Shown here piece by piece: positions 17,999 through 24,908 of a DNA stretch of 24,908 bases. Numbering within the stretch: position 1 is the stretch's first letter; the number at the start of each line of letters is the position of its first letter. A program made the position numbers and the translations under genes. Source of the DNA: a virus (taxonomy: Duplodnaviria > Heunggongvirae > Uroviricota > Caudoviricetes); IMG/VR virus record IMGVR_UViG_2579778993_000003; one strand, given 5' to 3'. Below the pieces are notes generated by a model, which did not search any database, was not told the DNA's origin, and was given only the letters and a program-made list of their open reading frames with translations.

Positions 17999-18040
17999 CT
18001 CACCAAACAACTAGTCACCAGTTAAGACACCGCAAAAATT

Positions 18041-18077
18041 TACCCATGGGTATTTACTTTTTAAATACCTATGGGTA
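18041..18077. promoter_or_regulatory. Second operator cluster: perfect palindrome TACCCATGGGTA plus near-palindrome ATACCTATGGGTAT
   Basis: Sites at 18041-18052 and 18064-18077 share the half-site TACCCA with the sites at 17506-17543. They lie between the repressor gene and the next plus-strand operon. Confidence 0.5.
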
Positions 18078-18263
18078 TCCTTCTTTTCATACCAACCCAC
18101 CCCGCCCCACAGAATGCAGGGCAATACTTCGAGTTACCAGGCAGTGGTCAGGGGTTAAGTAGCCAGCCCGAGGCGTAAGAACATGACGGCAGGGTTCAAC
18201 TTTAATAACTATGCAGCAGGTTTTTGTTCCGCTACCCCGGCGTTAAGGGGAAATGAGGTCAAC

Positions 18264-18416
18264 ATGGATATGCTCAATCTTGGCAACAACGAATCTCTGG
18301 TATGTGGCGTGTTCCCCAACCAGGACGGCACGTTTACCGCGATGACGTATACCAGAAGCAAAACGTTTAAAACTGAAGCTGGCGCGCGTCGCTGGTTAAC
18401 CAGAAACACTGACTGA
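18264..18416 (+). CDS. Small prophage protein (50 aa), YdaF/DUF1391-like
   Basis: ATG at 18264 preceded by GAGG with a 5-nt spacer. Product MDMLNLGNNESLVCGVFPNQDGTFTAMTYTRSKTFKTEAGARRWLTRNTD. Family assignment is from memory of Rac small proteins and is uncertain. Confidence 0.45.
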   Translation: MDMLNLGNNESLVCGVFPNQDGTFTAMTYTRSKTFKTEAGARRWLTRNTD

Positions 18417-18427
18417 TGAGGTTGACG

Positions 18428-18829
18428 ATGGAATTTAAAGATTTACCAGTACCATTCCAGGAAATGGCATCGAATGTGGTTCGCTCTCAACTGGCGACTC
18501 TTGACCTGAGTACCGTAGAAAAAGAAACCATCGATACTATATCCGGTAACGTGCGTCGTGCCTTTATAGGTCTGTATGAAGAGAAGCGCCTATTCGGCGG
18601 ACAGAATTCGCCTGAAAACAAGAATCAAGCAAATGATGAGAAGCTGAAACACATTATCGCCTTACTTTTGGAAGACGCAAAACGTCTACAGCAACTGGAA
18701 CCAAATGCAGGCACAGAGGCCCGCATTTGGATTGCCATGAAATCACTCAAATGTGAAAGCAGTGATTATTTCAAAACAACAATTAAAACTACTCAACTTT
18801 CGGGAGAGCTACTGAAGAAATTGCCATAA
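18428..18829 (+). CDS. Hypothetical protein (about 133 aa)
   Basis: ATG at 18428 preceded by GAGG; the track ORF starts at 18416, overlapping the previous stop. No motif recognised. Confidence 0.45.
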   Translation: MEFKDLPVPFQEMASNVVRSQLATLDLSTVEKETIDTISGNVRRAFIGLYEEKRLFGGQNSPENKNQANDEKLKHIIALLLEDAKRLQQLEPNAGTEARIWIAMKSLKCESSDYFKTTIKTTQLSGELLKKLP

Positions 18830-19067
18830 GAGCATGGTCTTTCTCTTGTTCTGCAAGATGAGCATTAATACCTGGTATGGTTTTTTCAAATTTATCTATC
18901 TGTTGAATAACAACTTCGCGGTATACGTTTGTTTTTGTACCACCAAGCGCAGCCGTTAATGCAGAAAGCATATTTAGTATCATATCAGTGCGATATGAAA
19001 GAATCCTGATAGCTTCATCTTGTTTTTCAATAATAGATTGCAGGGCCTCAATTTGCTTTTTATCCAT
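18789..19067 (-). CDS. Hypothetical helical/coiled-coil-like protein (about 92 aa)
   Basis: ATG at 19065-19067 preceded by GAGGGTGA. Its 3' end overlaps the convergent 18428-18829 gene by about 40 bp, so one of the two may be spurious. Confidence 0.4.
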   Translation of the reverse strand: MDKKQIEALQSIIEKQDEAIRILSYRTDMILNMLSALTAALGGTKTNVYREVVIQQIDKFEKTIPGINAHLAEQEKDHALMAISSVALPKVE

Positions 19068-19099
19068 TTCACCCTCCTGAGGGTTGGTAATTAAGGAGT

Positions 19100-19460
19100 T
19101 CTCCACGGGTCAGGTGGAGTGCGTGCGCCGGACACGGGTGAACATCCGGCACTGACAGTTTACTGAAAGGATATGTCCCTGAAAAGTCAGGGCATAACGC
19201 GAAAGCGCACGGCGAAATTGGTCTCTCTGTACGGTGTCGTTAAATTTAGTTCGACCGTGCGCTTCCGGTTGTGGCAATCCGCGAAATGGTGCGGCGGTAA
19301 GTATGGCGGGGGTATTCCTTCCCCCGTTGAGGACACCGGGTTGTCAGGTTGACCATACGCTTAAGTGACAACCCCGCTGCAACGCCCTCTGTTATCAATT
19401 TTCTGGTGACGTTTGGCGGTATCAGTTTTACTCCGTGACTGCTCTGCCGCCCTTTTTAAA
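19100..19460. other. GC-rich, hairpin-dense non-coding region (candidate structured RNA or DNA site)
   Basis: No convincing ORF. Several perfect stems: GCCGGA/TCCGGC nested inside GTCAG/CTGAC (19111-19156), CCCTGA aaag TCAGGG (~19177-19194), GCGCACGG...CCGTGCGC enclosing ~45 nt (~19205-19262), CGGGGG tattcctt CCCCCG (~19307-19326), and GGGTTGTCA-19 nt-TGACAACCC (~19338-19374). Confidence 0.3.
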
Positions 19461-19626
19461 GTGAATTTTGTGATGTGGTGAATGCGGCTGAGCGCACGCG
19501 GAACAGTTAAAACCAAAAACAGTGTTATGGGTGGATTCTCTGTATCCGGCGTTAATTGTTAACTGGTTAACGTCACCTGGAGGCACCAGGCACCGCATCA
19601 CAAAATTCATTGTTGAGGACGCGATA

Positions 19627-19815
19627 ATGGAAACGTTATTACCAAACGTTAATACGTCTGAAGGTTGTTTTGAAATTGGTGTCACTATCAGTAACCCAGT
19701 ATTTACTGAAGATGCCATTAACAAGAGAAAACACGAACGGGAGCTATTAAATAAAATATGCATTCTTTCAATGCTGGCCCGTTTACGTCCGATACAAAAA
19801 GGATGCTGGCAATGA
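19627..19815 (+). CDS. Hypothetical small protein (62 aa)
   Basis: ATG at 19627 preceded by GAGGA with a 7-nt spacer. Product METLLPNVNTSEGCFEIGVTISNPVFTEDAINKRKHERELLNKICILSMLARLRPIQKGCWQ. It occupies the position of small kil-type genes in Rac-like prophages. Confidence 0.35.
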   Translation: METLLPNVNTSEGCFEIGVTISNPVFTEDAINKRKHERELLNKICILSMLARLRPIQKGCWQ

Positions 19816-20003
19816 ATACAGCATTTGCACTTGTTCTGACAGTTTTTCTTGTTTCCGGAGAGCCAGTTGATATTGCAGTCAGTGTTCACAGGACAATGCA
19901 GGAGTGTGTGACTGCAGCAACCGAACAGAAAATTCCCGGTAACTGTTACCCGGTCGATAAAGTTATTCACCAGGATAATAACGAAATCCCGGCAGGTCTT
20001 TAA
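19812..20003 (+). CDS. Hypothetical small secreted protein (63 aa) with N-terminal signal-peptide-like segment
   Basis: ATG at 19812 preceded by AAGGA. Product MNTAFALVLTVFLVSGEPVDIAVSVHRTMQECVTAATEQKIPGNCYPVDKVIHQDNNEIPAGL has a hydrophobic N-terminus and two Cys in the mature part, with no lipobox. Confidence 0.4.
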   Translation: MNTAFALVLTVFLVSGEPVDIAVSVHRTMQECVTAATEQKIPGNCYPVDKVIHQDNNEIPAGL

Positions 20004-20095
20004 AACAGTTCCGTAATAAATATCCGGTTTCATTCTTATATGCCAGCAATGGCAGGGATTTGTTCACCCTTAAATCTGTAATGAGGTAAAACAAA

Positions 20096-22567
20096 ATGAG
20101 TAAAGTCTTTATTTGCGCCGCCATTCCGGACGAACAGGCAATAAAGGAAGAAGGTGCCGTCGCTGTAGCCACTGCCATTGAAGCCGGTGATGAACGTCGC
20201 GCCCGCGCAAAATTTCACTGGCAATTCCTGGAACATTATCCGGCTGCTCAGGACTGCGCTTATAAATTTCTTGTCTGCGAGGATAAACCCGGTATACCCC
20301 GCCCTGCCCTCGATTCCTGGGATGCTGAATATATGCAGGAAAACCGCTGGGATGAGGAGTCTGCTTCCTTTGTCCCGGTTGAGACTGAATCCGATCCGAT
20401 GAACGTCACTTTTGACAAGCTGGCCCCTGAAGTACAGAACGCTGTCATGGTTAAGTTCGACACATGTGAAAACATCACCGTTGATATGGTTATTAGCGCA
20501 CAGGAATTGTTGCAGGAAGACATGGCAACATTCGACGGCCATATCGTTGAAGCGTTGATGAAAATGCCAGAAGTTAACGCCATGTATCCGGAGCTTAAGC
20601 TGCATGCCATCGGGTGGGTTAAGCATAAATGTAAGCCTGGTGCCAAATGGCCCGAAATTCAGGCAGAGATGCGCATCTGGAAAAAACGTCGCGAAGGTGA
20701 ACGCAAGGAAACCGGAAAATACACGTCTGTTGTTGATCTCGCCCGCGCCAGAACCAATCAACAGCACAGTGAAAATTCAACAGGAAAAATCAGCCCGGTC
20801 ATTGCTGCCATTCATCGCGAATACAAGCAGACATGGAAAACACTGGATGACGAACTGGCCTACGCTCTCTGGCCTGGTGATGTGGATGCCGGAAACATTG
20901 ACGGCAGCATCCATCGCTGGGCAAAAAATGAAGTTATCGACAACGACCGCGAAGACTGGAAGCGTATCTCGGCATCAATGCGCAAACAGCCTGATGCCCT
21001 TCGCTACGACCGCCAGACTATTTTTGGCCTTGTCCGTGAACGTCCGATCGACATTCACAAAGACCCTGTGGCACTGAACAAATACATTACTGGATACCTG
21101 ACTACAAAGGGCGTGTTTGAAGATGAAGGAAGAAATCAGAGCGCAACTGATACTCTCTCGTCGCCAGTACCAGAAACTGATGCAGTGGAAACGGCAATTC
21201 CGGGCAACGAAAAAACCGAATGCAAAGTGGAAGTCGAACCATCTGTAGAGCGTGAGGGGCCGTTCTACTTCCTCTTCACCGACAAGGATGGCGAAAAATA
21301 CGGTCGCGCAAACAAACTTTCTGGTCTGGAAAAAGCACTAGCCTTGGGAGCTACGGAAATCACAAAAGAGGAATACTTCGCACGTAAAAACGGCACGTAC
21401 TCAGGTTCACAACAAAATACTGGTGCATCTGACACGACCGCACAACCAGAGCCGGTAAAAGTTACCGCTGACGAAGTAAACAAAATTATGCAGGCAGCCA
21501 ATATCAGCCAGCCTGACGCCGATAAGTTGCTTGCTGCCTCTCGCGGAGAATTTGTTGCAGGGATTAGCGACCCGAATGATCCGAAATGGGTAAAGGGGAT
21601 TGAAACCCGCGATTCTGTAAACCAGAACCAGCAAGAATCGGAACAGAACGACCAGAAAGCGGAACAAAACAGCCCAAATACGCAACAAAACGAGCCAGAA
21701 ACGAAACAACCTGAGCCAGTAGCGCAACAGGAACCGGAAAAAGTCTGCACCGCCTGCGGTCAAAGCGGTGGCGGCAACTGCCCTGATTGTGGCGCGGTGA
21801 TGGGTGACGCAACATACCAGGAAACATTCGATGAAGAGAATCAGGTTGAAGTTCAGGAAAATGATCCGAAGGAAATCGAAGGCGCTGAACATCCACACAA
21901 GGAGAATGCTGGTAGCGCTCAGGATCACGCCAGCGATAGTGAAACTGGCGAGACGGCAGATCCCTTAATTGCGATGAACGGTCATCACGTTATCACATCC
22001 ACCAGCAGGACGTGTGACCATCTAATGATCGACCTTGAAACCATGGGAAAAAATCCTGATGCCCCGATTATCTCAATAGGTGCAATATTTTTCGATCCGC
22101 AAACCGGAGATATGGGACCGGAATTTAGTAAGACTATCGATCTGGAAACTGCTGGCGGAGTCATTGATCGTGACGTCATTAAAAGGTGGCTGAAGCAATC
22201 ACGTGAAGCGCAGTCTGCCATTATGACCGATGAAATCCCGTTAGATGATGCACTGTTACAATTGCGGGAATTTATCGACGAAAACTCCGGTGAATTTTTT
22301 GTTCAGGTCTGGGGAAATGGAGCCAACTTCGACAACACGATTTTGCGCCGTTCATACGAACGGCAGGGGATCCCCTGCCCGTGGCGTTACTACAACGATC
22401 GCGATGTACGCACAATCGTTGAGCTGGGGAAAGCCATAGACTTCGATGCCAGAACGGCTATTCCATTCGAAGGTGAGCGCCATAATGCACTTGATGACGC
22501 CCGTTACCAGGCAAAATACGTTTCAGTTATCTGGCAAAAACTGATCCCGAATCAGGCTGATTTTTAA
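20096..22567 (+). CDS. Large prophage exonuclease (823 aa) with C-terminal DnaQ-like DEDDh 3'-5' exonuclease domain, Q/E-rich linker and CxxC...CxxC zinc-ribbon-like motif
   Basis: ATG at 20096. C-terminal motifs Exo I ([10 protein letters not shown]), Exo II ([12 protein letters not shown]) and Exo III ([14 protein letters not shown]). Low-complexity linker [41 protein letters not shown] followed by [16 protein letters not shown]. It occupies the recE position of Rac-like prophages, but no recT-like gene follows. Confidence 0.8.
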
Positions 22568-22631
22568 TGTTCAACCCCGGTCGTTGCCCACCAGCTATAG
22601 TGGCGGCGACCATGATTAGCGAACGACGCTC

Positions 22632-22880
22632 ATGGCAAGACTTATTCTGCTCACTGAGTGGGCAAAAGAGGAATTCAGTGAACCGGTCCCAACTCCGAGT
22701 ACGTTAAGTAAATACGCTAAAGCCGGAATGATATTTCCTCTCCCCAAAAAAGTTGGAAGACGCTGGCGAGTGGATCCGCAAGCTCGCTTTGTCGGAATGG
22801 TAAACAAGCCGGAGGTGATCGCCACAGATCACCCTGCTTTGAAGAGGATACTGGAAGATGGCGCGCCCGCGAAAATATAA
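22632..22880 (+). CDS. Excisionase / AlpA-like small DNA-binding protein
   Basis: 82 aa, basic, immediately upstream of and overlapping (23 bp) the integrase gene, the typical xis-int arrangement. Family assignment is by position and size. Confidence 0.55.
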   Translation: MARLILLTEWAKEEFSEPVPTPSTLSKYAKAGMIFPLPKKVGRRWRVDPQARFVGMVNKPEVIATDHPALKRILEDGAPAKI

Positions 22881-23988
22881 AACCAATGTTCCGGGATTAT
22901 CTCCGTATTTTGACAAAAGAAATAACAAAGTTTACTGGCGTTACAGGCATCCCATAACAGGCAAAAATCACGGTCTCGGCAGTATTGACCAGAAACTGGC
23001 AGAAACTATTGCAGCAGAAGCGAACAGCCGTCTTGCCCGGCAGCAAATGGAACAAATGCTCAGTCTGCAGGAGAAAATTATTAGTGATACCGGCGGTTCA
23101 TCAACCGTTACCATTTTTCTGAATAATTACAGAAAAATTCAACAGGAAAGATATGAAAACGGCGAGATCAAACTCAACACGCTGAAACAGAAAGCGGCTC
23201 CTCTCAGGGTATTTGATGAACGTTTTGGCACCAGACCGTTAGATGCCATAACCGTAAAAGATGTGGTATCAGTACTGGAAGAGTACAAGGCCAGAGGACA
23301 TAACAGAATGGGACAAATTTTCAGGAAGGTACTGATCGATGTTTTCCGGGAAGCTCAGCAAACGGGCGATGTCCCGCCAGGCTTTAACCCTGCAGAATCG
23401 GCAAAAAAACCGCAGGTGCGGATATCAAGACAGCGACTGACTTTTGATGAGTGGATGATGATTTATAACGCAGCGGAAAAGGATGGTTACTTTTTACAGC
23501 GCGGTATGCTGCTGGCACTGATGACAGGCCAGCGCCTTTCAGATATTTGCAAAATGCAATTTTCGGATATCCGGGATGGTTATCTTCATGTCGAACAGCA
23601 AAAAACAGGAACCCGGATTGCCATCCCTCTGGCTCTGCGTTGCGATAAATTAAATCTCACCCTGGATGATGTGGTGTCATCCTGCCGCGATTGCGTTCTT
23701 AGTCCGTGGCTATTGCACCACCATCACGCGAAAGGGACAGCTAAGCGCGGCGGGATGGTTAAGCCAGCAACATTAACCGTTGCATTTAAAAAAGCCCGGG
23801 ATTCTGTGGATTACAACTGGCGTGCTAATGGCACCCCTCCCTCTTTCCATGAGCAGAGATCTTTATCAGAGCGATTGTTCAGAGAGCAGGGGGTTGATAC
23901 CAAAATTTTGCTAGGCCATTCGAATCAAAAAATGACCGATATTTACAACGACGCACGCGGTAAGGAATGGAAAAAACTGGTCATTTGA
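22858..23988 (+). CDS. Tyrosine site-specific integrase
   Basis: 376 aa with tyrosine-recombinase boxes: TGQRLSDI (box I Arg), HEQRSL (His-x-x-Arg) and LLGHSNQKMTDIYN (box II with catalytic Tyr). Adjacent to the prophage/host junction beside ompW. Confidence 0.9.
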   Translation: MARPRKYKTNVPGLSPYFDKRNNKVYWRYRHPITGKNHGLGSIDQKLAETIAAEANSRLARQQMEQMLSLQEKIISDTGGSSTVTIFLNNYRKIQQERYENGEIKLNTLKQKAAPLRVFDERFGTRPLDAITVKDVVSVLEEYKARGHNRMGQIFRKVLIDVFREAQQTGDVPPGFNPAESAKKPQVRISRQRLTFDEWMMIYNAAEKDGYFLQRGMLLALMTGQRLSDICKMQFSDIRDGYLHVEQQKTGTRIAIPLALRCDKLNLTLDDVVSSCRDCVLSPWLLHHHHAKGTAKRGGMVKPATLTVAFKKARDSVDYNWRANGTPPSFHEQRSLSERLFREQGVDTKILLGHSNQKMTDIYNDARGKEWKKLVI

Positions 23989-23995
23989 TGACCAG
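23971..23995. terminator. Palindrome (CTGGTCAT ttg ATGACCAG) overlapping the integrase stop codon; functions as a terminator, most clearly for ompW on the minus strand
   Basis: Perfect 8-bp stem at 23977-23995, flanked by A6 (23971-23976) on one side and TTTT (23996-23999) on the other. The int stop TGA (23986-23988) is in the loop. Confidence 0.55.
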
Positions 23996-24030
23996 TTTTG
24001 CAGAGGGGTTTTGCAGAGGTTTTGCAGAGA
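23995..24030. repeat. Three tandem copies of GTTTTGCAGAG(G) at the prophage/host junction (candidate att or integrase-binding repeats)
   Basis: gttttgcagagg (23995-24006), ggttttgcagagg (24007-24019) and tttgcagaga (24021-24030), between the integrase 3' end and the ompW stop. Confidence 0.5.
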
Positions 24031-24033
24031 AAA

Positions 24034-24672
24034 TTAAAAACGATATCCTGCGGAGAACATAAACACCCACGGATCCAGTCGTACCGAGTCTTTTACGGTA
24101 GTAACACCAGATTTGTACTTAGCCGTGGTATCGATATCCATGTACCACACTGACATGTTAACCAACCAGTCACGGTTAATCAGATAATCAACCCCCACCT
24201 GCCCGGCAGCTCCCCAGGAATCTTTCAGACTGAGATCGGAAAGCCCTGCCTCTTTGCCATGATCGTTAAATCCATTATCAAAGAAGGTGGTGTAGTTAAT
24301 ACCTGCCCCAACGTAAGGACGGAATTTGCTGCTGGCATCACCAAAATACCACTGCGCCATCAGTGTTGGTGGCAGATGATGAACGGTTGCAATATCGCCG
24401 GTCGCCCGGGTGCCGATTTTATGGCGGAACGGCGTCGCTGCCAGTAATTCCACACCAATGTTGTCGGTCGCCATATAAGTAAACGTAAGGCCCAGTTGCG
24501 TGTTATTGGTCACGCTGAATCCACCCAGACTTCCTAACGTACCACCAGCACCTTCTGTTGGACGTACGGTTGCAGAACCTGCACGCATAAAAAATTCGCC
24601 TGCTTCATGCGCAAAGGCACTGCCAGAGAGAAGAGTTGTTACTGCCAAAGCCGCCACTGTTAATTTTTTCAT
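24034..24672 (-). CDS. ompW: Outer membrane protein W (8-stranded beta-barrel)
   Basis: 212 aa; signal peptide MKKLTVAALAVTTLLSGSAFA followed by HEAGEFFMRAGSATVRPTEG... and a C-terminal ...WVFMFSAGYRF beta-barrel signature. Recognised as E. coli OmpW from memory. Confidence 0.9.
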   Translation of the reverse strand: MKKLTVAALAVTTLLSGSAFAHEAGEFFMRAGSATVRPTEGAGGTLGSLGGFSVTNNTQLGLTFTYMATDNIGVELLAATPFRHKIGTRATGDIATVHHLPPTLMAQWYFGDASSKFRPYVGAGINYTTFFDNGFNDHGKEAGLSDLSLKDSWGAAGQVGVDYLINRDWLVNMSVWYMDIDTTAKYKSGVTTVKDSVRLDPWVFMFSAGYRF

Positions 24673-24767
24673 ATCCGCTCCGTCGTTATGGTTATAAAAA
24701 CGTGACGAATATACCTACATTGGAGTAACAAATGATCCTACATAGATCACATTACATATGATAATTC

Positions 24768-24908
24768 GGTAATGACTCCAACTTATTGATAGTGTTTTAT
24801 GTTCAGATAATGCCCGATGACTTTGTCATGCAGCTCCACCGATTTTGAGAACGACAGCGACTTCCGTCCCAGCCGTGCCAGGTGCTGCCTCAGATTCAGG
24901 TTATGCCG
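24768..24908 (-). mobile_element. IS1 insertion sequence, IRR-proximal end (element continues beyond window end)
   Basis: GGTAATGACTCCAACTTATTGATAGTG... from 24768 matches the IS1 right inverted repeat as I recall it; the following sequence encodes the InsB C-terminus on the minus strand. Confidence 0.85.
24783..24908 (-). CDS. insB: IS1 transposase InsB, 3' end (5'-partial at window edge)
   Basis: Minus-strand translation of 24908-24783 gives ...[41 protein letters not shown] followed by a stop (TAA, complement of 24783-24785), overlapping the IS1 terminal repeat. Confidence 0.8.

Follow-up and report, generated by a model that had tools for sequence, protein, structure and literature searches.

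An IS1 element lying just upstream of ompW raises the question of how much of the ompW promoter has been left with the gene, and under what control the gene would then stand. We addressed this in the 24,908-nucleotide stretch of IMG/VR virus record IMGVR_UViG_2579778993_000003, referred to here as the window and numbered from its first base. The ompW coding sequence occupies 24034-24672 on the minus strand and is intact, encoding 212 amino acids (from the list of open reading frames; Pfam OmpW, E=1.6e-80); the identical RefSeq loci also carry it as ompW. On its other flank lie the integrase and excisionase of a prophage, and an earlier note was correct in placing ompW between a prophage and an IS.

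The prophage side of the gene has features of its own. The 3' end of ompW (24032-24152) coincides with a 121-bp segment which records of PPompW-type phages, LC567822 among them, annotate as 'duplication due to insertion'. Differences from K-12 within this segment are concentrated in 24076-24124, where 25 of 49 bases differ and OmpW residues 185-194 change from NYKLGGAQQH in K-12 to KYKSGVTTVK. The prophage thus seems to supply a substitute 3' end of ompW, unlike that of K-12 near the C-terminus. Three direct copies of TTTTGCAGAG(G) occupy 23996-24030, after the integrase stop (23988) and before the att boundary (24032), and may be arm-type sites for the integrase or excisionase.

On the opposite side, the window edge cuts off an IS1 element of which the right-hand 141 bp (24768-24908) remain. 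The A of the ompW start codon is at 24672 on the minus strand, and the gap to IS1 spans 24673-24767, which makes the approximately 95 bp given earlier exactly 95 bp. When window positions 24640-24800 were compared by megablast with 5426 complete E. coli genomes, IS1-free genomes, including K-12, matched only as far as 24767. From 24768 onward the window reads GGTAATGACTCCAACTTATTGATAGTG, the start of the IS1 right inverted repeat, as had been claimed, and the IS1 part of the window matched IS1 in thousands of records at 100%. The terminal repeat covers 23 bp (24768-24790). Behind it lies the C-terminal coding region of InsB on the minus strand (24783-24908), with 41 codons in 24786-24908 and a TAA stop at 24785-24783; the 41-residue fragment aligns with positions 91-131 of the 131 positions of Pfam DDE_Tnp_IS1 (E=1.3e-19). 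InsB and ompW share a strand, and the transposase genes, insA-insB', are transcribed toward ompW. The earlier note had the InsB C-terminus reading away from ompW, and its orientation has to be reversed.

Since the window ends 141 bp into the element, full-length IS1 features were read in the corresponding loci of relatives. The identical junction is present at 100% identity in two complete genomes, TUM14664 (Japan, NZ_CP135649.1) and strain 102651 (NZ_CP189662.1), the latter a GEMS case isolate from the Gambia described as a hybrid EPEC/ETEC (PMC12697144). Over 6.9 kb (window 18000-24908 against L001 and L006, the two loci concerned) the window differs from each of them by four substitutions, which makes its source a third member of this lineage. 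In both genomes the element is 768 bp long (6769-7536 in L001) and has the features that follow. Its inverted repeats begin GGT(A/G)ATG, and a script comparison of the two ends matched the right repeat to the left at 18 of 23 positions. The A6C frameshift motif TTAAAAAAC lies at element position 305, with insA followed by insB' through a -1 frameshift, and RefSeq annotates the element in the junction genomes with 'programmed frameshift'. Pfam matches to Zn_ribbon_InsA, HTH_Tnp_IS1 and DDE_Tnp_IS1 (E=3e-77) indicate that the InsA and InsB domains are intact.

In both genomes the element lies between two copies of the 9-bp sequence TGATAATTC. The ompW-proximal copy is at 24759-24767 of the window (-58 to -66 of the ompW promoter), and K-12 and the closely related NCTC86 each have the sequence once, as an empty site. 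NCTC86 shares its prophage and its ompW allele with the window but lacks the insertion. Past the element the gene order yciC-yciB-yciA-tonB is normal, with no deletion or rearrangement. An assembly artefact or chimera is ruled out by the occurrence of the same junction at 100% identity in two independent complete genomes, together with the target duplication. A complete and apparently functional IS1, pointing in the same direction as ompW, has entered the ompW-yciC spacer by one ordinary transposition. This spacer also contains a 90-bp pseudogene fragment annotated in RefSeq as 'YkgJ family cysteine cluster protein' (L001 7690-7779, outside the window); it is found upstream of yciC in all strains examined and is unaffected by IS1.

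The regulation of ompW in K-12 provides a map on which the insertion can be placed. Transcription starts at a G 29 nt upstream of the ATG, as determined by 5' RLM-RACE (Xiao et al. 2016, PMC4886647). The same study located a NarL repressor box, TACTCCAATGTAGGTA, at -18.5, a CRP activator box, TGTGATCTATGTAGGA, at -42.5, an activating FNR site, TTAATCCAGATCAA, at -81.5 and a repressing FNR site, TTGATTTAAATCAC, at -126.5. H-NS represses ompW aerobically, and FNR bound at -81.5 counteracts H-NS. When four bases of the -81.5 site were changed, anaerobic induction disappeared and expression fell approximately threefold, to the level of a delta-fnr strain; both repression by ArcA and repression through the -126.5 site required FNR at -81.5. 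Expression of ompW was higher in a delta-fnr delta-hns strain than in a delta-fnr strain. The site mutants were assayed on a -215 to +56 lacZ fusion in a K-12 background (all PMC4886647).

By script, all four published promoter strings were found exactly, and their four centres fit one transcription start, at window position 24701. The insertion point is between -67 and -66, with the first base of IS1 at -67. On the ompW side, all on the minus strand, lie the 29-nt 5' UTR (24673-24701, +29 to +1; the base at 24701 was checked to be the start G), a -10 hexamer, TATATT, at 24708-24713 (-7 to -12), which was read from the sequence and whose position is deduced relative to the published start, the NarL box at 24712-24727 (centre -18.5) and the class II CRP box at 24736-24751 (centre -42.5). 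The two boxes match the published sites exactly. The whole retained stretch from -66 to +29 has zero differences from K-12, and the nearest change to it is a single synonymous one at 24664.

The window itself, on the other hand, contains neither FNR site. In TUM14664 both are found beyond IS1, with centres now at -858.5 and -903.5; together with the DNA upstream of them they have been shifted 777 bp further upstream. The earlier suggestion that the promoter and 5' UTR had been displaced or altered is therefore wrong for the 5' UTR, the -10 hexamer and the NarL and CRP boxes, which are identical to K-12, and right for the FNR module. Comparison with the reference upstream region accordingly places the core promoter, intact, within 24673-24767, and the activating FNR site outside this interval, displaced. 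The base composition of the upstream region has changed as well: from -67 to -215 the GC content is 38% natively and 48% in the IS1 DNA now in its place, and the stretch of lowest GC (27-36%) is now beyond IS1.

Several further elements were considered around the insertion point. In Salmonella an ArcA box (ABS-1) occupies -70 to -55, directly downstream of an FNR-like site (PMC3358236). IS1 sits at the homologous position and may clip the corresponding stretch; the E. coli stretch is itself a poor match to the ArcA consensus (approximately 8/15 by eye). Inside the right inverted repeat of IS1, TATCAATAAGTTG at 24779-24791 on the minus strand (-78 to -90) matches the IHF consensus pattern WATCAANNNNTTR. 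IHF binding to both ends of IS1 is referred to in PMC11043490 through the literature cited there, and an action of this IHF site at ompW would be speculative. The repeat also contains TTGATAGTGTTTTA, which matches an FNR site at 7 of 10 positions with its centre at -91.5, in helical phase with -81.5. It was rejected as a surrogate FNR site and is taken as a chance-level, post-hoc match because its second half-site lacks the key C. Neither the spacer nor the junction gave a match at or above the gathering score of any Rfam family.

What would such an arrangement do to ompW? The leader, the early coding region, the -10/-35 core and the NarL and CRP boxes stay joined to ompW, and the activating and repressing FNR sites are pushed 777 bp further upstream. 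FNR at -81.5 turns ompW on during an anaerobic shift by countering H-NS, and in the mechanism we propose such induction would be lost. Repression by ArcA would be lost with it, the FNR-bound state being required. From the published mutants we infer that the IS1 allele probably leaves ompW uncoupled from oxygen control by FNR and ArcA, expressed near a basal level like that of aerobic or delta-fnr cells, approximately threefold below normal anaerobic expression, and still responsive to CRP and NarL. The allele is expected to be blind to FNR and ArcA because the -81.5 mutation alone abolishes induction, and because ArcA and the -126.5 site need FNR at -81.5.

A quite different possibility is that the insertion is a passenger in an IS1-rich genome and that OmpW shows no measurable change in level under natural conditions. 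The distribution of the allele is in keeping with this. The exact junction was found in 2 of the 5426 complete genomes, in addition to the source of the window, and the ompW-yciC spacer was uninterrupted in 5418 of the 5423 genomes that possess it and interrupted in five. Approximately 9 IS1 copies, the 356-bp spacer as target in 5 Mb and 5423 genomes give a neutral expectation of approximately 3, a rough figure that ignores shared ancestry. The observed 2 is of the same order, and on this rough estimate nothing points to a hotspot or to selection. Both allele-bearing genomes contain at least 40 IS1 matches, and the ompW reading frame remains intact. Against an unchanged OmpW level stands the approximately threefold effect of mutating the -81.5 site alone (PMC4886647), and a site moved by approximately 0.78 kb is unlikely to keep its function. 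We regard neutrality in this sense as very improbable.

Other IS events near ompW were of different kinds. An IS1 hotspot upstream of ompW was considered and rejected: of the matches H3-H10, which resembled further IS1-ompW junctions, the three inspected (H3, H5 and H8) carry the element on the trpA flank of the gene instead, and interruptions of the ompW-yciC spacer number only the five among 5423 genomes noted above. In these three other E. coli genomes IS1 lies between trpA and ompW (L003 1517-2214, L004 1521-2217 and L005 1516-2213), and the stress genes yciG-yciF-yciE are wholly or partly deleted; the loci appear to represent separate, IS1-associated deletions. Strain ET729 carries an independent insertion of ISEc68, an IS5-like element, in the same ompW-yciC spacer (L008 3366-4346). 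ISEc68 lies approximately 190 bp upstream of the ATG (approximately -164), beyond both FNR sites, so that, in contrast to the IS1 allele, the mapped regulatory region stays with ompW. The 29-mer spanning the IS1 junction was unmatched in metagenome contigs, a result that carries little weight because IS junctions rarely assemble.

The main rival to reduced, oxygen-blind expression starts from H-NS. As at bgl, IS1 might break H-NS silencing by setting less AT-rich DNA directly beside the CRP box; ompW would then be constitutive, dependent on CRP and independent of FNR, and expressed at least as strongly as in the induced wild type. The target has the required properties, being CRP-dependent and H-NS-repressed aerobically according to the published work, with higher expression in the delta-fnr delta-hns than in the delta-fnr strain (PMC4886647), and IS1 (-67) lies upstream of the CRP box (-42.5). 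This box is a class II site, as in bgl, a CRP-activated and H-NS-silenced operon that is activated by upstream IS1 or IS5. Along with the activating FNR site the repressing one at -126.5 is lost, and the rise in GC from 38% to 48% and the placement of the most AT-rich stretch beyond IS1 fit a loss of silencer DNA. Such a loss, given the relative levels in the two deletion strains, could offset or outweigh the loss of FNR activation. However, the retained -66 to +29 stretch is itself 32-38% GC and may still bind H-NS; and whereas the switching on of bgl by IS elements is seen under selection, an allele found in 2 of 5426 genomes gives no sign of selection. On balance we consider relief of silencing to the induced level unlikely, and reduced expression without oxygen control remains the reading we prefer.

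A broader version of rewiring can also be framed, in which the promoter loses its two FNR inputs together with the upstream portion of the H-NS silencer and gains the IHF site beside the CRP core, making OmpW constitutive or purely catabolite-controlled in a diarrhoeagenic lineage. We hold this to be doubtful. If true, oxygen-independent OmpW could be selected through OmpW-dependent traits. These traits include the function of OmpW as a receptor for colicin S4 and for phage, serum resistance and stress tolerance.

The orientation of the element bears on a further alternative, namely that transcripts from pIRL, or from a hybrid promoter at the right inverted repeat, read through and dominate ompW expression. 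Both ompW and the transposase genes are read in the same direction, and a pIRL-like promoter, CTGCCA-16-TATGAT, is present on that strand; a scan found no intrinsic terminator on the ompW-directed strand between this promoter and ompW. Some read-through is therefore possible. IS1 insertions are, however, classically polar, which counts against a dominant contribution. In a consensus scan, no sigma-70-like promoter scoring at least 9/12 spanned the junction, and thus no hybrid promoter with the IS end was recognized at that threshold; the best candidate by eye, TTGGAG-17-TATGTA, reached 6/12. An IS1 promoter-lacZ reporter also showed low activity (PMC11043490). Expression of ompW driven mainly by IS1 is thus highly improbable, and the preferred reading, a CRP- and NarL-responsive core promoter parted from FNR and ArcA, is retained.

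Viewed in this way, the allele is a natural promoter dissection, in which the FNR/ArcA oxygen module has been parted from the CRP/NarL core. A carrier strain would lend itself to a test of the published model of anti-silencing by FNR at the unusual -81.5 position. For annotation, the lesson is that an IS placed 95 bp from a start codon may spare the core promoter and the 5' UTR. No description of the present insertion was apparent in the titles and abstract openings of the literature on IS1 and ompW. The allele is nevertheless already known in kind: its IS1 is fully typical, the regulation it interrupts has been published and the locus is annotated in two RefSeq genomes. It represents a single rare event of a well-known kind, with little import beyond the prediction of strain-level phenotype. 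The rewiring of promoters by IS insertions is textbook knowledge, with bgl and flhDC as examples.

Compared with known copies of IS1, the element shows no structural difference. It shares with the family the length of 768 bp, the inverted repeats, insA and insB' joined at an A6C motif, the 9-bp duplication in an AT-rich target and an end matching the IHF consensus, and the insertion site alone is particular. The closest functional likeness is to the m-81.5 mutant (PMC4886647), in which FNR activation is lost from a core promoter that keeps its CRP and NarL sites and is otherwise intact. That mutant changes four bases, whereas in the IS1 allele the -126.5 FNR site and everything upstream are removed as well; unlike the mutant, it adds 768 bp of foreign DNA with an IHF-consensus site and co-directional transposase genes. 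With bgl and flhDC the allele has in common an IS inserted just upstream of an activator site, in AT-rich DNA, at a CRP-dependent promoter silenced by H-NS. The difference lies in the starting state: bgl is silent and is switched on under selection, whereas ompW is normally expressed and here loses an anti-silencing site that it needs.
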